A stretch of DNA of 64,000 bases from the sequence record PV730299.1. One strand, written 5' to 3'. A model generated the notes under the pieces. The model searched no databases and was not told the origin of the DNA. It saw nothing but the letters and a program-made list of their open reading frames with translations. Position 1 is the stretch's first letter. Each line of letters opens with the position of its first letter. This DNA is from a phage. The translations under genes and the position numbers were made by a program. Below are positions 699-41,646 of this stretch, one piece after another.

Positions 699-1394
699 TC
701 AATCTCCAGGATGATGTACACCGTCTTTGTCAACACGGAACCACTCCGGCAGTTCCGTCCACGGTGTTTTCAAATCATTAGACATTTCGATAATTATCTC
801 TTTGATCCCGTTAGGATCCCCGCCTCCCTCGTTGTCCACCCAATAGTCATACCCGTAGATGAAGCCGCTCAGCTGGAACATGAAGGAGCAGTCGACGTGT
901 GGTGAATCAGAAGCATCCCCTTCCCAGTTATCGGACATCTGGTGGCTGACCAGTTGGATCTTGATCTTCTGGTCTTGCTGTAGTGTATCGTTGTCCTTGA
1001 TACCACAGTCTAGAGAGGGAGTGAATACCGAATAAACCTGCTCTAGCACCTGTAACATCTCAACCAATTTCTTGGTTCGGATATTGTACTCAAAATCGAT
1101 AATCAGGGGGATTCGCTGCTTCGCCCCTGCTGTTGGTGTCGATTGTCGATTGTGGTACGTCTTCGTCACCTGTTTGTTGATCTCAAACTGACCAAAAGAG
1201 AAGGTCGCAAATGGAAGCATGTTGGACGGCACGTTCCTGTTGAGGTCATTGCGTCTCCCGATGGCCATGTGTAATGGGACTTCCATAAGACCACGCTCTG
1301 TGTTCACCTTCAGATCAGACATAATGGTGGCAAACAGATTGATGTATTTCATCAATGAATCATGGTAGAAGTAATTTTCAAATGGTCTGGCCAT
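699..1394 (-). CDS. hypothetical late protein, 231 aa
   Basis: ORF track; ATG with GGAG RBS; 2-nt spacing to neighbours in minus-strand late operon. Confidence 0.6.
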   Translation of the reverse strand: MARPFENYFYHDSLMKYINLFATIMSDLKVNTERGLMEVPLHMAIGRRNDLNRNVPSNMLPFATFSFGQFEINKQVTKTYHNRQSTPTAGAKQRIPLIIDFEYNIRTKKLVEMLQVLEQVYSVFTPSLDCGIKDNDTLQQDQKIKIQLVSHQMSDNWEGDASDSPHVDCSFMFQLSGFIYGYDYWVDNEGGGDPNGIKEIIIEMSNDLKTPWTELPEWFRVDKDGVHHPGD

Positions 1395-13560: not shown

Positions 13561-13596
13561 TTGAAGATACCCCATAGAGGATTTGCCAATATGGGG

Positions 13597-13603
13597 TATT
13601 TAG
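13597..13603 (-). promoter_or_regulatory. late-promoter-like motif CTAAATACCCC with inverted partner
   Basis: Upstream of ATG 13560; TACCCCATA / TATGGGGTA inverted repeat. Confidence 0.5.
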
Positions 13604-13863
13604 TCTGAACTAATAAAATTTATGAACAAAGGTATAACAAGACGAACCAATGGAACTATGGTAGTGGGTTCAGACGCTAGTGCAAAACGGACATTGCTAA
13701 CAGAGATAACGTATTAACCACACACTTGGTTCACATGGTAGATGGTATTCAGTTAGGTATGTTTATATATCCGGACAAGTAATCACCTTAACGACAGTGT
13801 CAGTTAGGGTGATGCAAACAGTGAACTCTATATAAGAAAAGCCCCCGAATTGGGGGCTTATTT
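13604..13863. repeat. inter-tailspike repeat segment, copy 2 (frameshifted)
   Basis: Same block with indels breaking the copy-1 frame; shares GGTATTTAG-CTGAACTAATAAA-TTTATGAACAAAGGTATAACAAGA with copy 3. Confidence 0.7.
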
Positions 13864-13866: not shown

Positions 13867-16170
13867 TACCACAGGTACTCCATTAACTCTAAATTCTTCT
13901 GTGCCGTTACTTGTACCGACGCCGCCGTTGGAAAACCGGTTTGGCGTAGCGGCATCGTAGTAGTTAGGTTCTACCTTGGCTACGCTGGTGCCGGTTGTCC
14001 TTGCGAAACGGTGCGCGTTAATGCAGCCGAAGAACTGGTTATTTCCCCACGGGAATATTGTTGTGGTATCCACATAGGTGTTGTACCACAACCCGTATGC
14101 AAAACCATAAATTTGATTCCCTCTTATATTTATGTTTTGCCCGTTTTGGTTTACCCGAATAGCGCAGTTTGATGTTGAGTCCGTAGAAGTACCATGGATT
14201 TCGTTGTTTTTAATATTTGCGCGAATTACGCCGCTAGACACAAATATTCCGTAACCGTCAGTCACGCGCTCAATACGACATCCGTCAATAGTATGCAACC
14301 GGAATAGTGTTGCGCCGCCTTTTGGCTCAAGAAAAATTCCAGCGCCAGTAGGTTCTATGCTTCTGTGCCCAATAACCATTACGTTAACCGATTCTGTCGC
14401 TATATGCACACCGTAGCCCGCGGAACCCTTATCAACACAGTTAGCTATTGTCAGCTTACCTGTACCTACAGAATCCTGAATTTTATACGCACCGTTATTA
14501 GCGTTGGCGAACCCTTCCACATAACAGTTGTTGATCATGTCTCCGTCCACTACGTCACCAAACAGAATACCAGCACCGATGTTGTCTTGATTTATACCAA
14601 AACCGCAATCGTACACGGAAACATTAGAGACTGTTGCTGGTTGGTATCGAACAGCTCCATCCAGGCCGCCGGACCGATATAAGCCCGTCCACCCTTTATC
14701 ACGGATGATAACATTGCTGACTTTTATGCCACCGCCGTATGTCTGATTGGAGTTGTAACCTATCGTAATTCCGTGACGAGCTTTAATATCTGAACGAGTC
14801 TTTGGCGTAAAATCTGTGGCGTCATACGTGAAACAGCGCCCATTGCTAATTAATATGTTTCTCCCAAAAGATAGAGAGTTTACGGAAATGCTCTGGCTGC
14901 CGTCAGAAAGACACGCAAAATTAGTTATACTGCATGATTTCGCCAACCCGGCGTTAGAAGTCCACTCAACCAAATCACCGCCAGAGGAGAATAGCGGGGA
15001 GCCGTCCCAATCATTTCGCCACCCAACAAAACCATCTATGGTCATGCTGTTGACTTCGAACCACATGACACCAGCGTTTTTCCATCCCTCACAACGGATA
15101 TCATTTAACGTAACTTCACGGCTACCTGCGATGTAAAAACCGTTTGCTTTATTTCTGTCCGTGGCTGTTAGCGAATAATCACCAAACGATTCCAGCCCTT
15201 CGATAATTATTCTGCGGGATGTGTCTTGTGGGAGTTCCACACCGTTTACGTTAGCTACAGTAGTCATCAGCCGCATTCCTTTAGCATCAATGTATTGTGG
15301 ATACGCTGGCGGTGATGGAATTAAGGCAGTTGTTTTATAAAAGACACCAACGGAACCGATACAGTGCTGCTGAGATGCCCATCTGTTAAGTGCCACGCCA
15401 TTATCAAATGATGGGTCATTAGGTATGCATCCACACTCTTCTGGTGTTAACCTGCCACGTTTAATGTTAATCCATCGACCAGCGCCAGTTACTGACGAAG
15501 GTTGAATAACCGAGAACCCATCATCGGCGGTTGTCGCAAGTGGGTGCCACTGAAAAATCCCACCGCCTACGTTATACCCAGCCAGGAAACTACGGACTAC
15601 CACTCTGTCTCCGTCAGAAAAAGGGGATAAATCGACTAAGGCTTTTAATGCCGCCACTGAAGGGAATGACCCTATTAGCGCTGCGCCTTGCTCAGATTTA
15701 AGGTCGTCGCGTAAATACGGGTCTGTCTGTGGTTTCCAATTAGCGTTTCCTACCGGGTCGGTTTCTGTAGAAATAGTTATGGGGAGGGAACCTAAGTAGG
15801 TGTAACCTATACCATTATGAAACAGTAACTCATTTCGAGTATTCACGACTAAACCGGCATCAAACGAGTCGGATAGGTTCACGAATTCTCTACGTGTAGC
15901 AGCCAGTTCACCTAAATCAACTGTGCCTGCGGAATGAACCAGGATTGCCTGTTCGTTCAGACTTATCGCAGTCGTTCCTGAAACAATACCTGAAGGAAGA
16001 GAATAAGCCCGTTGGGTAGACTCATCATAAATTACTTTAAATCCACTGAGATCAATATCAGAAGAGAAATAAACGACTTCGTCTTCTTTGACACCGAAAT
16101 TTCGAGCGATAGATTGTTTGTTAACTTCTATGGAAGTGGAGCCACGTGGTTGATTGAATTGAGAAATCAT
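13864..16170 (-). CDS. tailspike protein, 768 aa, beta-helix-like C-terminal domain
   Basis: N-terminal module highly similar to the 733-aa paralogue; CTAAATACCCC motif 30 nt upstream; hairpin terminator downstream. Confidence 0.8.
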   Translation of the reverse strand: MISQFNQPRGSTSIEVNKQSIARNFGVKEDEVVYFSSDIDLSGFKVIYDESTQRAYSLPSGIVSGTTAISLNEQAILVHSAGTVDLGELAATRREFVNLSDSFDAGLVVNTRNELLFHNGIGYTYLGSLPITISTETDPVGNANWKPQTDPYLRDDLKSEQGAALIGSFPSVAALKALVDLSPFSDGDRVVVRSFLAGYNVGGGIFQWHPLATTADDGFSVIQPSSVTGAGRWINIKRGRLTPEECGCIPNDPSFDNGVALNRWASQQHCIGSVGVFYKTTALIPSPPAYPQYIDAKGMRLMTTVANVNGVELPQDTSRRIIIEGLESFGDYSLTATDRNKANGFYIAGSREVTLNDIRCEGWKNAGVMWFEVNSMTIDGFVGWRNDWDGSPLFSSGGDLVEWTSNAGLAKSCSITNFACLSDGSQSISVNSLSFGRNILISNGRCFTYDATDFTPKTRSDIKARHGITIGYNSNQTYGGGIKVSNVIIRDKGWTGLYRSGGLDGAVRYQPATVSNVSVYDCGFGINQDNIGAGILFGDVVDGDMINNCYVEGFANANNGAYKIQDSVGTGKLTIANCVDKGSAGYGVHIATESVNVMVIGHRSIEPTGAGIFLEPKGGATLFRLHTIDGCRIERVTDGYGIFVSSGVIRANIKNNEIHGTSTDSTSNCAIRVNQNGQNINIRGNQIYGFAYGLWYNTYVDTTTIFPWGNNQFFGCINAHRFARTTGTSVAKVEPNYYDAATPNRFSNGGVGTSNGTEEFRVNGVPVV

Positions 16171-16203
16171 GATAATACCCCATAAAGGATGACCAATATG
16201 GGG

Positions 16204-16210
16204 TATTTAG
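16204..16210 (-). promoter_or_regulatory. late-promoter-like motif CTAAATACCCC with inverted partner
   Basis: 30 nt upstream of ATG 16170. Confidence 0.5.
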
Positions 16211-16466
16211 GCTGAACTAATAAATTTATGAACAAAGGTATAACAAGAACCCTGCCGAAGAGGGGGTTTGATTTTACTCTCCAAAATCACGATTACATGT
16301 GTAACCCCTAACAATTGTTGTGGATGGTATTCAGTTGGGTATGTTTAATATCTCAGGGCAAGTAATCACCATAACAGCAGTGTTAGTTAAGGTAATGCAA
16401 ACAGTAAACTCTATATAAAAAGTATCATTAGTAGGTAAAACTAACCCCGCCTGAGCGGGGTTGTTT
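16211..16466. repeat. inter-tailspike repeat segment, copy 3 (5' and 3' parts only)
   Basis: 3' part 16318-16430 could encode DGIQLGMFNISGQVITITAVLVKVMQTVNSI, matching the copy-1 C-terminus. Confidence 0.65.
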
Positions 16467-23519: not shown

Positions 23520-23838
23520 CCAACGGGAATCAAAACGGCTCGCGCGCGTTTAATTTATTCGAATATAACTCGCGAGGGGGCTGACGCCCTCGCTCGTAAC
23601 ACCGCCCTGTGCGGGCAGCACCATTCCACAGCCATGGAGGCTGCTTCTCGTTGTTCGTTGACACTCACAACTCGAAGGGCACTGCGTTAGGATACAGTTT
23701 CTTGATGTTGTAGAAAAGTAGTTTTTACCTATTAATAATCACTGTCATTATTTTATTGGTCATTCCTGTGTTTATATTCAATAAACATACTCCCAATATA
23801 ATAACGGAGACATTTAATCAATCCAGTGAGGCTCCGGA

Positions 23839-24612: not shown

Positions 24613-26439
24613 CTCAAAGAGGAGAGGACTTTTCAAATTAGCTGGGCTGCAGTAAAGTATTAAGCGTGAGGCGAACAACGCATCGAGTTAGGCATCTAAA
24701 GCCGACCTCGCTAATCCCAGTCTCAGGGGCATGCGTGAATAGAGGCGTGATATCCACCTTGCATGGTGTCAGTGGACGCACTTGACCGTCGGAGAACGAA
24801 ACTCCCTGTTGTAGCGTGATTAGCTCAGAATCAGAGAGCACCCCGTTGGCAAGTCGACACCAACGCAAGGGGAGGTCGGGGGCGCTAATCTCCATCACGC
24901 CGACAACATTATGAGTCTTCCATAGAGGGTTCATAATGTTGCGTCAAAGGGCAACAAGGTTCCTGTTGGTTGAATTAACTTGATTCATAGTTCCTACTGA
25001 TCTTCCCGGATTCGAAGGAGCACCAACAGGCGAGGCCGGATGCGTAAGTTCCGGTAAATCGATGGTGATACCCTCGCCAACAAAAATAAAAGGTTTTATC
25101 AATAACGGGTTACAAAGTATAGTTAACCCACTGAAGCGAAAAGCTGTTTGGGCATTAGACAAACACTTCGATGTGAACCCAGGACATGGTGTCTTGTGCT
25201 CAAACAGGTTTTCGTTTTCGTTGTGAGTGACTTTGCGGGTTTTTAGAAACTGACCAAGCAAATAACTGCTAATGATTCCGAAGTTCTGATGGCGGCGTAA
25301 CAGCCTATAAGTCAGTGAGGTCTTCCGATTCCTCATCACCAAATTCGGCGCACTAAAATAGACGGGAGGGTGTGATTAATAATCTCCCGTCGACAATGCC
25401 GTTATATCTGACTGTCCAAAGGGGATAAGCTCCTGAGTAAGCAGAGGTGGGTTGCCTAAGTCAGATGGGATGTAAGGTCAGCGCTGGCCAAGCATTTGGG
25501 TTCGACTCCTAAAAACGGCTCCACATCTTTGAGGATATTCTCACGAGTATCTTGAAAGATGTGAGCGAAGTCTTGCCATCAGCCCTGATCCCTGGCAGGT
25601 GAAGGGCACACAAATCGAAGTGTCTTGACAATTTATCTTAAACCCAAAGGTTGATCTAGAAATTGGGCGGCCAATCCGGTGGACGATAACAGCATATTGG
25701 GCCATACTGTTGAGTCAGGGCACTTCGATTTGTGAACTTGAGAGAGCATTGGGTGAAATAGACCATGCCTTGCAGATTGCGATGTCTACACACATTCCGG
25801 ACACTGGTGGGCACCAAGAAGAACTCAGTAGCAGACGAGCCATCAGGGTTAGCTACCCGGCGCGGCGAGGACTGGGAGGCCGAACTAAGGGGAAACCCGA
25901 GACAGGCGTAGTATTCTCAAGTTCACAAAATGAAGAGCATTTAAAGAGTTCGATTCTCTTTCAGGCCATTCGTGGTGTGATGTGAGTCATGAATGTTCTT
26001 CATCTTTGGGTGATTCTATGTTGCCGGGCTATCAACCCATGCTTGCTGGAGCAACCAGCGGCTCTGAATCAACCAGCCAGCCTAGTTTGGTCCGAGCGTT
26101 AGAGGACAAGTTGCTTCTGTATGGAAGCTGCGAGTTGTAACATTTGGTTGCAACTTTGATGGCTCTGGATTTTATAAACCATGTCTATGGGTGACGCGGG
26201 ATCTTTAGTACCAGAGCTATCAAAGTTGTGTCCAACCCGATCTTACAAGCCCGTATCCCGGTCTGGTTAAGACTTGTAAGTGGAAAGCCCTGGAAAAATA
26301 AACGCCTGTGGCGAGGCTATGGTGCAAGCCAAAGACCCACAGAAGCGCATGCCGTGAGGCGCACAAACAGGCATGCATGAACTGATCATGCACAAACGGG
26401 ATAAAGGGTTGACAGTCCTTGGTTGGTACACAATAATTT

Positions 26440-26516
26440 GGTCCTGTAGCTCAGTCGGTTAGAGCAGTGAACTCATAATTCATTGGTCATTGGTTCAAAC
26501 CCAATCAGGATCACCA
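26440..26516 (+). tRNA. tRNA with CAT anticodon (Met, or Ile2 if lysidine-modified)
   Basis: Manual cloverleaf: acceptor GGTCCTG/CAGGATC, D-arm GCTC-AGTCGGTTA-GAGC, anticodon loop CTCATAA, T-arm ATTGG-TTCAAAC-CCAAT, encoded CCA. Confidence 0.85.
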
Positions 26517-26769
26517 TGTTAAGGGGTGTGAAACATAACACTCCGACAAACACAGTAAGCGTTGCAGCCAGCTGTGTATAAAATGGGGATGACTCCGCAT
26601 CGGAAACGATGCCCCAACTTCCAGAAATGGTCGGGCGCAAAGCCTGTAAAGTTCCAGGAGATCGAACCAGAAGGCACTGGTCGCCAGTTAACCAATCGGC
26701 GCTGAGAAGCGCGGGGAGTTGGGCTACGGCAGATCAAATGCTCAATCGGGTGTGAAGCCCGTCCAAATT

Positions 26770-26858
26770 GGAAGGTTGCCCGAGAGGTTTAAGGGACTCG
26801 ACTGCTAATCGAGTGGGGCTTTTAGCCCCCGAAGGTTCGAATCCTTCACCTTCCGCCA
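26770..26858 (+). tRNA. tRNA-Ser (GCT anticodon), type II with long variable arm
   Basis: Manual cloverleaf: acceptor GGAAGGT/ACCTTCC, anticodon loop CTGCTAA, variable arm GTGGGGCTTTTAGCCCCC, T-arm GAAGG-TTCGAAT-CCTTC, discriminator G plus CCA. Confidence 0.85.
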
Positions 26859-27228
26859 AATTACGGGCGTGACTTCCTGAAGAGTTAGAAGATGTGCATG
26901 TCGACTCTCTCGTAATCGGGGTGTTTAGGAAGTTAAGAAAATCGCGGCGAGGATAGTGAAATGCAAATAGCTTTCTCTACGTCGACGACTTCAGGTTCGA
27001 CTCCTGACGCGCTCTCCCATAGGGTAGTACCAGTGCAAGCGTGTAGTCTTTCAACCCATCCCATCGATGTGGTATAGCCGGATATCCTATCCGGCTTTCT
27101 TTTTATCCCTGTCTTATTATCTTCTTATCGGCCCAAGCATGTCCTCCTTTATCATAGTTTGTTCAATGATACAAAGGGGGTTTAAAATTTAACCGTTAAC
27201 CCCCTGTCATAGATTTGAGGATACACCG

Positions 27229-27417
27229 ATGCGTAATGTTTCTATCTGGGAATTGAACGAAGTGATTTCCCGTGACACCCCTCCAATTGTCAGACTCTTC
27301 CGATACAAGGGTGTCAAGCGCACTCTGAATGAGTTCCTGTCGCCTGTTTACGTCTACCGTGATGGCGGGTTCTTCCGCCGCGATAAAAAACATCCCGAAC
27401 CTTGGTATGACGTTTGA
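27229..27417 (+). CDS. hypothetical protein, 62 aa
   Basis: ORF track. Confidence 0.4.
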   Translation: MRNVSIWELNEVISRDTPPIVRLFRYKGVKRTLNEFLSPVYVYRDGGFFRRDKKHPEPWYDV

Positions 27418-27886
27418 TTTGAGTATCAAAGGCCAGGTTGTGCTGATGGGTTATGGTAGCCTGGAACAATCTGAGAAAGGCCAGGGCGCTCCACTTATGG
27501 TCTTCGGTTCGTTTGAACAAGCCGTGCACTGGCTGATCAGAAACGGATATGATTTCTATGGCGAAGAAAGCGCCAATTGGCGTCGTCGCAAGGTCAAGTC
27601 TGTTGATCTGGTGGATTTGAATCTGATGTACCAGGCCATGGCTCGCGAGTATGAAAAGAATCTCGTCAAGCCTGTCGCTCAGGAGAACAATGTTGTTAAC
27701 GACGCAACTGAGTCTTCTCATCATGACGTGAACATCGTTCCAGCCTGTGAAACGAAAGCACCGACACCGCCTACTCCTCCGGCCAGTCGTGTTCTGAATG
27801 ATCAGGGTGCTCCAGTAAAACAAAAGGTCAAAAAGCCAACTTTCATGGATAACATGATGAAGTTCCTTCGTCTGTTCAAGAAGTAA
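27407..27886 (+). CDS. hypothetical protein, about 160 aa (start uncertain, alternative ATG 27446)
   Basis: ORF-track frame; first ATG overlaps stop of upstream ORF. Confidence 0.45.
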   Translation: MTFDLSIKGQVVLMGYGSLEQSEKGQGAPLMVFGSFEQAVHWLIRNGYDFYGEESANWRRRKVKSVDLVDLNLMYQAMAREYEKNLVKPVAQENNVVNDATESSHHDVNIVPACETKAPTPPTPPASRVLNDQGAPVKQKVKKPTFMDNMMKFLRLFKK

Positions 27887-27908
27887 TCCGAGATTCTCCT
27901 TTTCTATA

Positions 27909-27948
27909 CTCCTGTAGATACACTATGATAAGCCAATGTCTACAGGAG
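27909..27948 (+). promoter_or_regulatory. perfect 10-bp inverted repeat hairpin sequestering the RBS of the PLP-enzyme gene
   Basis: CTCCTGTAGA (27909-27918) pairs with TCTACAGGAG (27939-27948); 3' arm contains the AGGAG RBS. Confidence 0.45.
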
Positions 27949-27956
27949 AAAATAGA

Positions 27957-29150
27957 ATGAACAAGACCATCTTCGATATCCTTTCCCTCGACCGCAACCT
28001 GGTCCATTGGGAAGATTATCTCTACAAGCACACCCCGTGCGAACTTGTCGTCAACCCCGAAACCAATCAGCAGGTCTGGTTCAAGCGTGAAGATTATTTT
28101 GCGCCGCTGTCCAATTATGCAAATGGCCAGCAGGGCATCAACGGCAGCAAACTCCGCCAGGCCATCTGGTTGATGGTTGAGCACCTCAAGGCCGGAGGCT
28201 CCCCTGACATCATCCATGGTACTGTCGTTGGTAGTCCGCAGTCCCCTATGGCGACAGCAGTCTCTCGGCACTTCGGCGGCAAGACAACCACTGTACTCGG
28301 AGCGACCAAACCCACCACCTGTATGAACCACGACATGGTGGCAATGTCAGCCTGGTTTGGTAGTGAGTTCAACTTCGTCGGCTCGGGTTACAACAGCACG
28401 ATCCAGCCGCGCTGTAAGAAGTTGATCGAACAACAGAATCCAAAGGCGTATTATCTGGAATATGGTATCACCCTCGACCATACAGCGCATTCTCCTGAGC
28501 GCATCGCTGGCTTCCATATGCTGGGTGGCGAGCAGGTTGCCAACATCCCTGACCATATTACCGATCTGATTATCCCAGCCGGATCGTGCAACTCTTGCAC
28601 AAGTATCCTGACCGGGCTGGCAATGCATCCGAAGCCTAATCTGAAGCGTGTGTATCTGATTGGCATCGGTCCGAACCGCCTGGACTTTATCGAGAGCCGT
28701 CTGCGCATCATCGGCAAACATGCCAATCTGCCGCACATTGTCGACTTCACCCGTCGCTATCACGACAACCCAGACTATGTACACGGCAAGAAGGAGCTTC
28801 AGCATGCCTCTAAGAGCGTTTCGCTGGCTGGCCTCCTAAGTGGTATCAGGCAGAAGGAAGAGCCACAGGTCGTGCTTCCTCGCTTTGAGGTACACCATTG
28901 GGATCTTCACACCACTAATTGGGTTCGTTATAATGACCTGATGGAATATCAGTGGGGTGATATTGAGTTGCATCCTCGCTATGAAGGCAAGGTCATGACC
29001 TGGATCCAGCAGAACAAGCCCGAGTTGCTCAATGAGAAAACTCTGTTCTGGATTGTGGGAAGCAAGCCGTACATCGAGCCGATGAAGGCTGCATGTCCTG
29101 AACTGGCTATCCCCGAAGCAGTACCTGTAAACGAATTCACCCCTTCCTGA
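27957..29150 (+). CDS. PLP-dependent enzyme, fold type II (ACC deaminase / D-cysteine desulfhydrase-like)
   Basis: KREDYFAPL ... GINGSKLRQ pattern resembles the family motif K-R-E-D ... GGNK-x-RK with PLP lysine; start set to ATG 27957 with AGGAG RBS. Confidence 0.6.
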   Translation: MNKTIFDILSLDRNLVHWEDYLYKHTPCELVVNPETNQQVWFKREDYFAPLSNYANGQQGINGSKLRQAIWLMVEHLKAGGSPDIIHGTVVGSPQSPMATAVSRHFGGKTTTVLGATKPTTCMNHDMVAMSAWFGSEFNFVGSGYNSTIQPRCKKLIEQQNPKAYYLEYGITLDHTAHSPERIAGFHMLGGEQVANIPDHITDLIIPAGSCNSCTSILTGLAMHPKPNLKRVYLIGIGPNRLDFIESRLRIIGKHANLPHIVDFTRRYHDNPDYVHGKKELQHASKSVSLAGLLSGIRQKEEPQVVLPRFEVHHWDLHTTNWVRYNDLMEYQWGDIELHPRYEGKVMTWIQQNKPELLNEKTLFWIVGSKPYIEPMKAACPELAIPEAVPVNEFTPS

Positions 29151-29156
29151 TTCCTC

Positions 29157-29167
29157 CTAAATACCCC
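29157..29167 (+). promoter_or_regulatory. late-promoter-like motif CTAAATACCCC (distal copy)
   Basis: Followed by ATACCCCATAC / GTGTGGGGTAT inverted repeat. Confidence 0.4.
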
Positions 29168-29255
29168 ATACAACCAGTGTGGGGTATCTATGAAACCTTC
29201 CTCCAATATTTCCTAGAGGCGTCCTGTACAAACCAGGCCTCGCCAAGCGGGAAGC

Positions 29256-29266
29256 CTAAATACCCC
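29256..29266 (+). promoter_or_regulatory. late-promoter-like motif CTAAATACCCC (proximal copy)
   Basis: 29 nt upstream of ATG 29295. Confidence 0.5.
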
Positions 29267-29294
29267 ATATGGCTAACCCACTGAGGAACCCAAC

Positions 29295-29753
29295 ATGCCA
29301 ACCTCCAAATTGTTTGAATCAGAATACACCAATGACATCCCTGTATGGACTGGTGTTCAAGACGGTATCACGATTGAGCTGTTTGATCGTGAAGAGACAG
29401 GCGCGGAAGAGATCTATGCAGGCGTTGAAGGCACTGATGTTGTCCGCGCCGCCGTAGCTCTTGCCACCTTCCTAGAAGATGCACCGATTGATGGTGTGCC
29501 GTTCGAGGCGCACGTAGATCCCAAGGATCCGACCTCTATCATCATTACAGTGAATGGGGTGCCATACACTTCGTACAGTATCGAGACGGACGAAGAAGGC
29601 AGTGGAGCGCTGTATATTGCCACCGACCTGCAGCTGGAAGACGATGAGATGGATTATCTGATTCAGAACGGGGTGCTGCCACCGTTTACCGATGAAGAAC
29701 TGGACACGGAACTGGCCGCCGTCGGGGACGACGAAGACTTCTGGGAAGAATAA
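29295..29753 (+). CDS. acidic hypothetical protein, 152 aa, apparently late-expressed
   Basis: GAGGAA RBS; two CTAAATACCCC motifs upstream; strong terminator downstream. Confidence 0.65.
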   Translation: MPTSKLFESEYTNDIPVWTGVQDGITIELFDREETGAEEIYAGVEGTDVVRAAVALATFLEDAPIDGVPFEAHVDPKDPTSIIITVNGVPYTSYSIETDEEGSGALYIATDLQLEDDEMDYLIQNGVLPPFTDEELDTELAAVGDDEDFWEE

Positions 29754-30742: not shown

Positions 30743-30821
30743 AATAAACTCCTTGGTCAATGAATGGCTCTATGGTTAAATATGCCCACGTGCTAACGGC
30801 ACGGATAACCTGGAGAATTAC

Positions 30822-33821
30822 ATGACCGTTTTCTATACGAACGTTGCCCGAAGGGGCAATGACCTGTTGATTCGAATTGCAGATGACATGGGTAATCGCC
30901 GTCTGTTGAAAAAGAAATTCGAACCCACTCTCTATTTACCCACGGCTGACTATTCAAATGTTGAAAAGGTCGGTCTTCTCAATGAACCCCTGGTAGCCAA
31001 GCAGTTCCCTTCCATGCGTGACGCTGACAACTATCTTGAAGAGTACAAGGAAGTCCAGGGTGCTGCCATTTACGGACAGACCGATTATGCATACCAGTTC
31101 ATCGCCCATAGCTTTCCTGGAAAGATTGAGCCGGATTATTCCAACATCCATATTGCTAACCTCGATATCGAAGTGTTCTCCGCCGGGTGGAAAGACGGAA
31201 AGATGACCAAAGGTCCATTCCCTCACCCAACCATTGAGCAGCAGACGTTCAAAGGGAATGAGGCGCGCATTCGCCGCTTCCATAAACAAGTGCTGGCCAA
31301 CCATGAATTTGTCCGTGAGCACTTCCCTGGTTCTTTCATCAGCAACAACGTCACTGATCAGTTCCCTATCATTGATAGCAATGGTAAGATCACCCAGGAC
31401 ATGAATGCGGCGTTCCCCATTACCCTGATCCAGCTTCAGGATATGGCGACCAATAAGTTCATGGTCTGGGGTATGCCCTGTGCCAAAGACCGCAATAAGT
31501 TCGCATACGACACCGAAGACAAAGAGATCGGCGGCCTTGAGGTTGTTTATCAGGAGTTCACCACCGAACAAGATCTGCTGCGCTCGTTCCTAGACTTCTG
31601 GTCGGAGCGTCAGTTCGACGGATGGACTGGCTGGAACATTGAGACGTTTGATAGCCCTTATCTTGTTGAGCGCATGAATCAGGTTCTGGGTGAGGCTGAA
31701 ACGTCGCGCCTCAGTCCTTGGGGTATCATTAAGAAGCGTATCATTCGCGATAAGAAGGGCGATATCACGACGTATCAGTTCGTGGGCTGTCCTATGCTCG
31801 ATTATATGCAGATCTACAAGAAACACACGTACACCACCCGTGAACGCTACTCTCTTGACTGGATTGCGTATTGTGAGCTGGGTGAGAAGAAGATGGACTA
31901 CAGTGAGAGCAAGTCGCTCTTTGATCTGTACTTCAACGACTACTGCAAACACACCCGATATGGTATCAAAGACGTTAAGCTGGTATGGCGACTTGAACAG
32001 AAGCTGCGCCTGCTCCAGCTGATGTTCGTCCTTGCTTACCGCACCAAGTCCAACTATGAGGACGGCCTGGGTACTGTGGCTCCGTGGCTGGCCATGTGCT
32101 ACTATCGCCTGTACGAGAAGGGGATAGTACCTAAGATCCAGCGTGTATACGATGGTCCGACCGACTTTGAGGGTGCATACGTCATGGATGTGACACCAGG
32201 AATCTACTTCTGGGTCTTCTCGGAAGATTTGAACTCCCTGTATCCTCACATCATTCAGCAGTACAACCTCGGTCCAGAGACTATCGTTGGCGACAAACAC
32301 CAGCGCCGCGAGATTATTGAGGCTATGTGTGAAGAGCTGGCTGCTCAGATGAATAACATGGCAACGCCGATGCACAAACGTCGGTTGATGAAAGCCCTTC
32401 ACGACAAGCTGTTGCGTGCGGTTGATGAACGCCTGCAGGTTGTTGATGAGTTGGTTGCCCTGGGTGAGTTCCACTTTGAAACCCTGCGCCGCTACAACGT
32501 GTCGTTCACACCGAACGTTCAATTCTTCAGCAACGAGAAGATGTCGTTCCTGTCTGAAATCATGCGCGGTATCTACAGCGACCGTAAAGTAGAGAAGGCC
32601 AAGGGGCTGAAGTACGAGCAGTGGGCTGGTTGGTGTAAAGAGATGTCGAAGGGCGACTTCCATCTTGAGTCTGCCATGAAGTCTCGCTACTATGACCCAG
32701 AGTGGTATGAAGAGCACAAGAACATTGATCTTGATGCCCTGACCGAAGTGATGAAGAAGTGGGAAGACCTGGGCGTCGCTCAAGATACCCTTCAACAAGG
32801 TCTGAAGATCTTGATGAACGCAGGTTATGGCGCGATCTCAAACGTCTGGTTCAAAGAGTACTTCAACCTCAACATTGCCGAAGCCATCACCACATCCGGT
32901 CAGCTGATCAACAAGTGGAACAAGCGTTACACCGATGATTATCTGAACAAGCTGTGTGGTACAACAGGCCAGGACTTCGTCATCGCAGGGGATACCGACT
33001 CCAACTACATCTGCATTGAGCGTCTTGTCAAGCATTTGTGGCCTGATGTTACTGACCATCATGCTATGGTTGATAATATCGACCAATGGATCAAAGACAA
33101 CTACCAGCCGAAGACCAATGAGTGGGCACAGCTTCTGTGTAACACCATGAACGGATTTGAACAGCGCATGGTGTGGGAGCGTGAGGTCATTGCGTCAGCC
33201 GCTGTCTGGCGAGCCAAGAAGATGTATGCCATGGCCGTGTACGACAGTGAGGGTATCAAGTACGAGAAGCCGAAGATCAAGTTCAAAGGTCTGGAAGCCC
33301 GCAAGTCCACCACACCGGAATGGTGTCGTGAGCGTCTTGTCAAGTGCTATGAGAAGATCCTACTCGGCACCGAAGAGGAAGTGCAGACGCTCATCTCCCA
33401 GTACAAAGAGGAGTATATGAAACTCTCTGTAGACGATATCGCCAAGGCGTCAGGTGTGTCCGACATAGAGAAGTGTGTGGCTGCTGACGGATCGTTTATA
33501 TCTGGTGCTCATTTTGCTGCCAAGGCGTGTGTGGGCTACAACCGTCTGGTTGAGAAGAACGAAGATCTGGGTCTACCGATGATCGAGTCGGGTGATAAGG
33601 TACAGATGGTGTTGTTGAAGCCGGGCAACCCGTTTGGGCAGAACTACTTTGCATATCCTGAGTTCTTCCCCGAGGAGCTTGGTCTGGGCAAATGGGTGGA
33701 TTATCAGGCGGCCTTTGAGAAGTCCTTCATTGATCCGATTCAGTCTATCCTCGACGTGGTCGGCTGGTCACACAAGCGCCGTGTGAACCTTCTTGCCATG
33801 ATGCAAAAGAAGAAAGGTTGA
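30822..33821 (+). CDS. DNA polymerase, family B, T4 gp43-like
   Basis: FPSMRDA N-terminal motif, SLYPHII and GDTDS polymerase motifs, AITTSGQ; TGGAG RBS. Confidence 0.95.
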   Translation: MTVFYTNVARRGNDLLIRIADDMGNRRLLKKKFEPTLYLPTADYSNVEKVGLLNEPLVAKQFPSMRDADNYLEEYKEVQGAAIYGQTDYAYQFIAHSFPGKIEPDYSNIHIANLDIEVFSAGWKDGKMTKGPFPHPTIEQQTFKGNEARIRRFHKQVLANHEFVREHFPGSFISNNVTDQFPIIDSNGKITQDMNAAFPITLIQLQDMATNKFMVWGMPCAKDRNKFAYDTEDKEIGGLEVVYQEFTTEQDLLRSFLDFWSERQFDGWTGWNIETFDSPYLVERMNQVLGEAETSRLSPWGIIKKRIIRDKKGDITTYQFVGCPMLDYMQIYKKHTYTTRERYSLDWIAYCELGEKKMDYSESKSLFDLYFNDYCKHTRYGIKDVKLVWRLEQKLRLLQLMFVLAYRTKSNYEDGLGTVAPWLAMCYYRLYEKGIVPKIQRVYDGPTDFEGAYVMDVTPGIYFWVFSEDLNSLYPHIIQQYNLGPETIVGDKHQRREIIEAMCEELAAQMNNMATPMHKRRLMKALHDKLLRAVDERLQVVDELVALGEFHFETLRRYNVSFTPNVQFFSNEKMSFLSEIMRGIYSDRKVEKAKGLKYEQWAGWCKEMSKGDFHLESAMKSRYYDPEWYEEHKNIDLDALTEVMKKWEDLGVAQDTLQQGLKILMNAGYGAISNVWFKEYFNLNIAEAITTSGQLINKWNKRYTDDYLNKLCGTTGQDFVIAGDTDSNYICIERLVKHLWPDVTDHHAMVDNIDQWIKDNYQPKTNEWAQLLCNTMNGFEQRMVWEREVIASAAVWRAKKMYAMAVYDSEGIKYEKPKIKFKGLEARKSTTPEWCRERLVKCYEKILLGTEEEVQTLISQYKEEYMKLSVDDIAKASGVSDIEKCVAADGSFISGAHFAAKACVGYNRLVEKNEDLGLPMIESGDKVQMVLLKPGNPFGQNYFAYPEFFPEELGLGKWVDYQAAFEKSFIDPIQSILDVVGWSHKRRVNLLAMMQKKKG

Positions 33822-33834
33822 TTCAATAAACCAA

Positions 33835-33854
33835 AGGGGGATATAATTCCCCCT
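33835..33854 (+). terminator. hairpin after DNA polymerase gene (weak U-tract)
   Basis: Stem AGGGGG/CCCCCT, loop ATATAATT; preceded by TTCAATAAA. Confidence 0.35.
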
Positions 33855-33883
33855 GTTAACCCTTTGACAAACAGGTGATTGAA

Positions 33884-39091: not shown

Positions 39092-39119
39092 TCTGACTGG
39101 GGTTGCTTCCTTCAATAAA

Positions 39120-39158
39120 GGGGAATGGGTTATTATTAGCCCATTCCCCTTTCTTTTT
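39120..39158 (+). terminator. rho-independent terminator
   Basis: 10-bp stem GGGGAATGGG/CCCATTCCCC, loop TTATTATTAG, then TTTCTTTTT; preceded by TTCAATAAA. Confidence 0.75.
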
Positions 39159-41596: not shown

Positions 41597-41612
41597 TCGT
41601 TCTTCAATAAAA

Positions 41613-41646
41613 GGGGATAGGGTATTATTGCTCTATCCCTTTTTCG
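41613..41646 (+). terminator. rho-independent terminator
   Basis: Stem GGGATAG/CTATCCC, loop with TATTATT, then TTTTT; preceded by TTCAATAAA. Confidence 0.7.

Follow-up and report, generated by a model that had tools for sequence, protein, structure and literature searches.

A conserved hairpin over the ribosome-binding site of a phage DNA hypermodification gene has a promoter-like element in its loop and may gate translation in the T4 manner

Immediately 5' of the gene for a PLP-dependent decarboxylase, an Ackermannviridae phage carries a conserved regulatory cassette of about 73 nt (27887-27959, + strand), which lies between the TAA of the upstream gene (27884-27886) and the PLP start codon, and which is predicted to fold into a stable hairpin that pairs the Shine-Dalgarno sequence (SD) and has a -10-like hexamer in its loop. 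All positions refer to the window, which is the whole stretch of 64,000 nucleotides that was analysed (record PV730299.1). We regard the cassette as a real conserved cis-regulatory element, most likely a member of the T4-type promoter-embedded, SD-sequestering hairpins. Such an element acts as a gate: transcripts that read through from upstream would be silent, and transcripts that start within the hairpin would be translated. For this full mechanism we estimate a probability of about 0.5. The safer statement, and one that we consider likely, is that the hairpin functions as a regulatory RNA of one kind or another by sequestering the SD. The kind of mechanism is most likely one that is already known, the controlled gene here being that of a hypermodification enzyme.

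The window comes from an Agtrevirus-like member of the Ackermannviridae, with 96.8% identity to Escherichia phage ZQ1 and 96.6% to Salmonella phage CECAV_050. The PLP gene occupies 27957-29150 (+ strand), and its product has 91.6% amino-acid identity over residues 3-396 to YP_004327553 of Salmonella phage ViI. The match to the Pfam family PALP has an E-value of 3e-7 and a score of 30.5 bits, which is below the curated cut-off of 35. The locus is also shared, since in the ViI record the cassette is found immediately 5' of YP_004327553. In ViI, gp226 has been established experimentally as the PLP-dependent decarboxylase by which O-serinyl-thymidine in DNA becomes 5-NeOmdU (PMC8989533). By these sequence comparisons, the regulated gene is identified as the gp226 orthologue, and would encode the enzyme that completes the 5-NeOmdU modification.

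The start codon at 27957-27959 comes 8 nt past the SD, AGGAG (27944-27948), and this cassette ATG opens the PLP reading frame in every main-clade locus. The original prediction had pointed out an alternative ATG in the loop. There is indeed an ATG at 27936-27938 (+ strand), but it sits at the boundary of loop and stem, has no SD, and is not conserved as a start. It is in frame only in the subgroup to which the window belongs (one extra A); in most relatives it opens an out-of-frame mini-ORF of seven codons (MSTGEIE), the TGA of which overlaps the real ATG. Because the frame of the upstream ATG is not conserved among relatives, the real start is taken to be 27957 and the upstream ATG is rejected. 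This corrects the annotation of some GenBank records, among them PQ306799, which begin the PLP gene at the upstream ATG. An antisense reading frame at 27876-28331 was likewise discarded, as it is not preserved where the PLP N-terminal region varies.

The N-terminal region itself contains a lineage-specific extension of 0 to about 59 residues, placed between an invariant MN and a conserved K(T/S)IF (loci L001-L022). Its position next to the ultra-conserved cassette suggests a hotspot of recombination or insertion at the junction. In Dickeya phage LIMEstone1 (L024, 3478-5085) an ORF of 535 aa is inserted between the cassette ATGAAC and the PLP gene, and uses the SD and start of the cassette. It matches DUF7487, with weak restriction-endonuclease-like and treble-clef matches, and looks like a mobile endonuclease-type insertion. 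The LIMEstone1 PLP gene, left with a duplicated GGAAAATAGAATG, is probably translationally coupled (TAGAATG).

The two arms of the hairpin, CTCCTGTAGA (27909-27918) and TCTACAGGAG (27939-27948), are perfect complements, as can be read from the sequence. This pairing, the AGGAG in the 3' arm and the ATGs at 27957 and 27936 had all been described earlier, and proved exact in coordinates and bases. In the RNAfold structure the upper stem grows to 12 bp by the addition of the pairs U27919-G27938 and A27920-U27937. It then consists of the 5' arm or anti-SD, CUCCUGUAGAUA (27909-27920), a loop of 16 nt that is nearly invariant among relatives (27921-27936), and the 3' arm containing the SD (27937-27948). 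A lower stem of 6 bp is formed between UUCUAU (27902-27907), which is paired in both the minimum free energy and the centroid structure and is invariant in the main-clade alignment, and AUAGAA (27952-27957), the last base of which is the A of the start codon. The stems of 12 and 6 bp are separated by an asymmetric internal loop of 1 x 3-4 nt, and all of these elements are on the + strand. A repeat search reports the same region as imperfect arms of 22 nt, at 27897-27918 and 27939-27960.

The folding energy, which had been proposed as a check, is in keeping with a stable structure. The 48-nt core of the hairpin has -16.8 kcal/mol (z -5.7, with none of 200 shuffled sequences as stable), a 76-nt segment has -20.8 kcal/mol (z -4.2), and in a context of 111 nt the value is -26 kcal/mol (z -3.9). 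Opening of the initiation region (-15 to +3) is calculated to cost 19.9 kcal/mol in a long transcript, as against 5.6 kcal/mol in a transcript that begins 7 nt past TATGAT. By pairedness of the initiation region, the PLP gene ranks 9th of 80 in the window, on crude gene calls. The original prediction had concluded from the burial of the ribosome-binding site that the PLP gene may be under post-transcriptional control, and this is supported by the unfolding cost of about 20 kcal/mol, by the conservation of the cassette, and by the SD-sequestering hairpins of distant genera, both of which are described below. A perfect 10-bp hairpin is by itself not rare: the window contains 10 of them with loops of 3-30 nt, compared with 1.45 +/- 1.26 expected from first-order Markov simulations. 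The distinctive features are the position over SD and AUG, the extension of the stem, and the conservation. No further copy of the cassette or of its sub-motifs was found in the window with up to 4 mismatches allowed. A search of 25300-29400 with the Rfam covariance models, at E-values up to 1, returned two tRNAs and weak chance matches, and nothing over 27887-27962.

Conservation in related phages was another of the proposed checks. The cassette is present in exactly one copy, with at least 90% identity, in 267 of 267 phage records, the hosts of the cassette being Kuttervirus, Agtrevirus, Limestonevirus and Taipeivirus, and it is more conserved than the coding DNA that flanks it. The surrounding 1.9 kb is only 80-90% identical to the window in 244 of these records. 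In a comparison of individual segments, loci whose PLP coding DNA has 80-88% identity to the window have 94-97% in the cassette, and the genes 5' of the cassette differ from phage to phage. Mean column identity in the main-clade alignment of the cassette is 96%. The stem variants C27909U and A27916G (LIMEstone1) keep their pairing as G-U wobbles on the sense RNA, and to judge from these substitutions would favour pairing of the sense-strand RNA. A further variant, U27939C, is present in 4 of 14 distinct sequences and disrupts a single pair close to the loop end of the stem. Nine of the 12 upper-stem pairs never vary, and two-sided compensatory changes are absent; because the element is nearly invariant, a covariation test has no power in the main clade. 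Loop variants are G27922A, found in the window and in a metagenome contig (L164), and A27932T, found in some lineages. The near-invariance of the whole loop and of positions 27890-27899 (GAGATTCTCC) exceeds what a promoter and a stem need.

Metagenomes were searched with a degenerate pattern of the cassette. There were 86 matches, 85 of which are chance matches, mostly in divergent promoter regions, and the remaining one is L164, a genuine and near-identical phage contig. When IMG/VR was searched for the two arms with any loop, the only matches outside the Ackermannviridae were one in a coding region (L043, L045) and one in a T4-like phage contig of 159.9 kb (L044). The latter, at 1056-1094 (- strand), has CTCCTGTAGA and TCTACAGGAG with TATAAT in the loop, 6 nt before a gene that we take to be denV-like from the N-terminus of T4 endonuclease V. 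These arms are probably a coincidence, because the number of matches is about that expected by chance for a 20-base pattern, although the architecture is alike.

A more distant set consisted of Serratia phages phiMAM1, 3M and Kevin (Miltonvirus), Serratia phage 2050H1, and Erwinia phages Bue1 and phiEa2809 (Nezavisimistyvirus). The PLP proteins of the Serratia and Erwinia phages are about 70% identical. In phiMAM1, 3M, Kevin, Bue1 and phiEa2809, a hairpin of different sequence is found at the same site, with UCUCCUU paired with AAGGAGA and an energy of -19 to -27 kcal/mol. In phiMAM1 the helix comprises about 23 bp and is interrupted by bulges, and a G-U pair in it is a G-C pair in Kevin. The 5' half (TTCTCCTTGGGTATTGAG ... 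GTATACAAT) is common to the Serratia and Erwinia lineages; the 3' half differs and pairs in other registers. The exchange of G-U for G-C and the constant 5' half combined with a register-shifted 3' half would be explained better if selection acts on the pairing of the RNA than if it acts on a half-site in the DNA. The comparison of folds shows convergent re-creation, in other genera and with a different sequence, of the SD-sequestering hairpin.

The block GAGATTCTCCTT (27890-27901, + strand) is common to all Ackermannviridae lineages examined, as seen in the cross-genus alignment and in the folds of phiMAM1, 3M, Kevin and Bue1. Within it is the anti-SD-like UCUCCUU, with which the SD pairs in the Serratia and Erwinia phages, and the candidate roles of the block in the window are those of an alternative anti-SD or a promoter-upstream element. 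The footprint that is retained across genera consists of four blocks, namely GAGATTCTCCTT, the -10-like hexamer, AGGAG and ATG. In ViI-type and Miltonvirus sequences, the drop in opening energy from the long to the short transcript is similar to that in the window. For Serratia 2050H1 and the Erwinia phages the drop is smaller, since 5-9 kcal/mol is enough to open the long form, and the SD is thus only weakly sequestered. Among more distant PLP homologues (at most 48% amino-acid identity in IMG/VR; Aeromonas and Pseudomonas phages) no cassette was found, and the gene abuts or overlaps its upstream neighbour.

The loop of the hairpin contains the putative -10 hexamer TATGAT (27924-27929, + strand), in the same register in every lineage, and a weight-matrix scan places a weak -35-like hexamer, TTTCTA (27901-27906, + strand), 17 nt 5' of it. 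The sigma70 matrix was a simple one built from textbook consensus frequencies, and on its approximate scores the main-clade site TTTCTA-17-TATGAT has 8.1 bits, ranking 255 of about 640,000 combinations of site and spacer, and the TTGGGT-17-TACAAT of the Serratia and Erwinia phages has 11.2 bits in the same register. In every lineage, this register gives the best sigma70-like site in the 80 nt 5' of the gene, and the distance from the -10 hexamer to the ATG is 26 nt, or 27 nt in the window. The site in the window is weak, matching the -35 consensus at 3 of 6 positions, and about 250 equal or better sites would be found by chance in 64 kb on both strands. A standard promoter scan does not list the sigma70-like site in the cassette. 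Transcription from TATGAT is predicted to start at about 27935-27938, and such transcripts would be without the 5' arm. Separately, the best sigma70-like site of the region, TTCACA-17-TATAAT (11/12), is located at 28906-28934, within the 3' part of the PLP gene.

Two regulatory motifs have been described for the Ackermannviridae, the early-type TTCAAT[N14]TATAAT and the late CTAAATAcCcc (PMC7283392), and a pattern search matched neither of them in the cassette. The cassette does contain TTCTAT-N16-TATGAT, which resembles the early-type motif with one mismatch per hexamer and has its -10 in a loop, as do several copies in the window; its spacing is, however, 16 and not 14-15, and the TTGGGT-N17-TACAAT of the Serratia and Erwinia phages has no resemblance to the motif. 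A literature search found no transcriptome, transcription-start data or mapped promoters for any Ackermannviridae phage, and the authors of the CBA120 genome paper write that they were unable to identify early promoters.

The same-strand gene upstream of the cassette (27229-27886, + strand) is frameshifted in the window: an extra A at 27380-27385, where there is A6 compared with A5 in CECAV_050 (intact, 218 aa), divides it into two frames that overlap. The extra A may be genuine or may be an error of sequencing. A terminator scan lists a terminator-like site at 27076-27096, and no site between 27097 and the cassette. Because there is no terminator between them, transcripts of gene 27229-27886 would be expected to enter the cassette. 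The tRNA cluster and the upstream gene are on the same strand as the PLP gene, and there is a strong sigma70-like site at 26409-26437. Translational coupling to the upstream gene was considered and judged unlikely, as 25 nt separate its stop from the main 5' arm and the gene varies among phages. The window has two tRNA genes (Met, Ser) compared with five in the close relative CECAV_050. A hairpin of about 110 nt at 26135-26248, 5' of the tRNA cluster, gives weak matches to Rfam miRNA precursors on both strands, which reflect its shape only.

In Erwinia phage Bue1 the tRNA and the cassette are separated by a terminator-like hairpin and U-run, so that the PLP gene requires a promoter of its own no more than about 95 nt away. 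In a Vibrio relative, a clear terminator precedes a TATAAT that is located 24 nt 5' of the ATG.

The proposed mechanism is that the hairpin acts in cis as an RNA, and that translation of the PLP gene would depend on which transcript carries it. Read-through RNA from the tRNA cluster and gene 27229-27886 would carry both arms; the anti-SD at 27909-27920 would pair with 27937-27948 including AGGAG, the lower stem would pair the A of AUG, and the 30S subunit would be blocked. A sigma70-type promoter with its -10, TATGAT, in the loop would produce transcripts from about 27936 that are without the 5' arm and could be translated. The enzyme would then be made when the gene's own promoter fires, irrespective of read-through. 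From the arrangement of these elements we infer the promoter activity of the hexamer, its start site, and the difference in translation between the two classes of transcript.

Arrangements of this type are known. In T4 genes e, soc and 49, I-TevI/II/III and segB, and in Aeh1 mobE, a hairpin blocks the ribosome-binding site, and transcripts from the promoter are without its 5' strand (PMC3014915, PMC2988022). As in the e/soc class, the cassette has a stable helix that holds the SD and touches the AUG, same-strand genes upstream with no terminator between, and a promoter-like -10 within the hairpin, whose transcripts would retain the 3' arm only. The phage is moreover a T4-related myovirus, in which three of the late promoters in the window are arranged alike. 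Unlike the T4 class, the embedded element is not late (gp55-type): CTAAATAcCcc is absent from the cassette, so the later temporal class typical of the T4-type gate is not seen here, and the element is a weak predicted sigma70-like site. The regulated gene also differs, being that of a DNA-hypermodification enzyme and not a lysis, capsid or homing-endonuclease gene.

The late motif CTAAATA occurs in 10 copies elsewhere in the window, and CTAAATA(cCcc) is found 8-35 nt 5' of nine genes. In three places the motif CTAAATACCCC is in the 5' arm of a hairpin, at 16168-16212, 13565-13605 and 2045-2079 (all - strand), 5' of minus-strand genes that end at 16170, 13575 and 2047. These hairpins have -10 to -20 kcal/mol (z about -4.6), and in them the promoter-proximal AAUACCCCAUA pairs with the SD/AUG region, the 3' arm being UAUGGGGUAUU or UUGAGGGUAU. 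This is the arrangement of T4 gene e, apparently used repeatedly. The early-type motif was found by pattern search as TTCAAT-N14-TAnnnT at 23777, 33822, 39111 and 41603, and with N15 at 27162 and 42882. Four or five of these TTCAAT-N14/15 promoter-like motifs have the -10 in the loop of a G+C-rich hairpin; such sites include 33822-33860, 39111-39155, 41603-41640 and 27162-27205, two of which are followed by a T-run, and they look like overlapping terminator-promoter modules. Since designs with a promoter inside a hairpin appear to be habitual in this phage, the same reading of the PLP cassette becomes more plausible. The original prediction had proposed control by the hairpin as such; that idea survives, but it missed both the -10-like hexamer at a fixed distance in the loop and the late promoters inside SD-pairing hairpins.

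Some further arrangements were seen in the neighbourhood. Two copies of CTAAATACCCC are located within 29157-29262, in the 144-nt spacer before ORF 29295-29753, and the first of them has a hairpin, AUACCCCA/UGGGGUAU, just 5' of a mini-ORF of eight codons. The DNA polymerase gene (start 30822) has its SD, GGAG, predicted to be paired in a hairpin at 30765-30830 (-24 kcal/mol, z -2.3), which recalls the autogenous control of T4 gene 43.

The alternative that survives best does without an internal promoter: the hairpin would repress or throttle translation of every transcript, any relief coming from RNase III or another endonuclease, an RNA-binding protein, or a helicase. We consider this possible, although rather doubtful. 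It draws on the same structural and conservation evidence as the T4-type gate, the weak promoter score is in its favour, and the invariance of the loop fits a sequence-specific binding partner. A comparison can be made with the operators of T4 gp43, gp32 and RegA, which share with the cassette a conserved RNA over the initiation region of a phage DNA-metabolism gene and a loop that is invariant within the clade (PMC3014915). The T4 gene 43 operator hairpin is, however, 5' of the ribosome-binding site and not paired with it, and is much smaller than the hairpin described here (PMC3014915); and, unlike these operators, the cassette has no known or predicted binding protein. The CBA120 genome paper reports no regulators of the RegA, MotA or AsiA type. 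Two observations are difficult for any model without a local promoter: the spacing between the -10-like hexamer and the ATG is constant even though the sequences of loop and arms otherwise differ among lineages, and the terminators just upstream in the Erwinia and Vibrio relatives imply a promoter nearby.

Within this alternative, processing by RNase III had been put forward in the original prediction, and no specific support for it was found. The layout of the helix, two stems and an asymmetric internal loop over the initiation region, does recall the leader hairpins of the lambda N and T7 R1.1 type. Such leader hairpins occlude an SD and are processed by RNase III. The cassette differs from them in having only 18 interrupted base pairs (12 + 6), which is short for RNase III, an enzyme whose sites are quasi-continuous double-stranded helices of about two turns (about 20 bp), and in having the internal loop between SD and AUG, where a cut would be expected to inactivate the message. 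The fixed position of the -10 hexamer is also left unexplained by an RNase III model. The hexamer in the loop and the late-promoter hairpins of the window would both favour the T4 mechanism over control by a repressor protein or by RNase III.

That the loop and GAGATTCTCC hardly vary at all goes beyond what the T4-type gate demands, and leaves room for a trans-acting partner. The cassette could on this basis be an autoregulatory operator or sensor with a sequence-specific partner in trans, either an unknown phage activator or repressor or the DNA-binding modification enzymes themselves, through which the last hypermodification enzyme might be produced according to how far the phage DNA has been replicated or modified. 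It would fit such a role that about 73 nt, including the loop and GAGATTCTCC, are conserved more tightly than the coding sequence of the enzyme in four genera. As a variant, leaderless transcripts from A27936 may have the 7-codon mini-ORF translated first, its stop overlapping the real start. We regard the reading with a trans-acting partner as unlikely.

An operator at the DNA level, in which the inverted repeat is bound by a dimeric repressor or activator around the -10 hexamer of the gene, is distinctly unlikely. The arms do flank the -10-like hexamer, with 27909-27918 in the spacer and 27939-27948 at about +3 to +13, and the whole cassette including the loop is nearly invariant; the 3' arm is constrained anyway, because the SD lies within it. 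The half-sites are, however, 30 bp apart from centre to centre, which is atypical for one dimer. The G-U wobbles kept by the natural variants are mismatches in the symmetry of the DNA, and in other genera the 5' half is kept and the 3' half re-pairs in a new register, with loss of the half-site sequence.

It is very improbable that the hairpin lacks a regulatory role and is merely a palindrome that arose by chance around a consensus SD and has been passed on among closely related genomes. About 1.5 perfect 10-bp hairpins are expected per window, and the main clade has no compensatory double changes, both of which would suit this explanation; but the cassette is more conserved than the adjacent coding DNA in four genera, unrelated sequences form SD-sequestering hairpins at the same position in Serratia and Erwinia phages, and the fold has z-scores of -4 to -6. 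An intrinsic terminator or attenuator of the upstream gene, suggested by a stable hairpin right behind a stop codon, is rejected because both strands lack a U-tract (behind the 3' arm come AAAAUAGAAUG and the PLP gene), and the hairpin is not listed by the terminator scan that lists 27076-27096.

The T4-type gate bears on a modification of some importance to these phages, as the thymidine hypermodification 5-NeOmdU protects the DNA of ViI-like phages from host nucleases, and the PLP enzyme completes it. Promoters and post-transcriptional control in the Ackermannviridae are almost unexplored, and the timing of the genes of the 5-NeOmdU pathway is uncharted. If the mechanism is true, the hairpin with its embedded promoter would provide the pathway with a concrete regulatory element that is easy to test. 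Along with the late-promoter hairpins, it would suggest that the T4 strategy of placing a promoter within an inhibitory hairpin is widespread in the Ackermannviridae, a family that is popular for therapeutic use.
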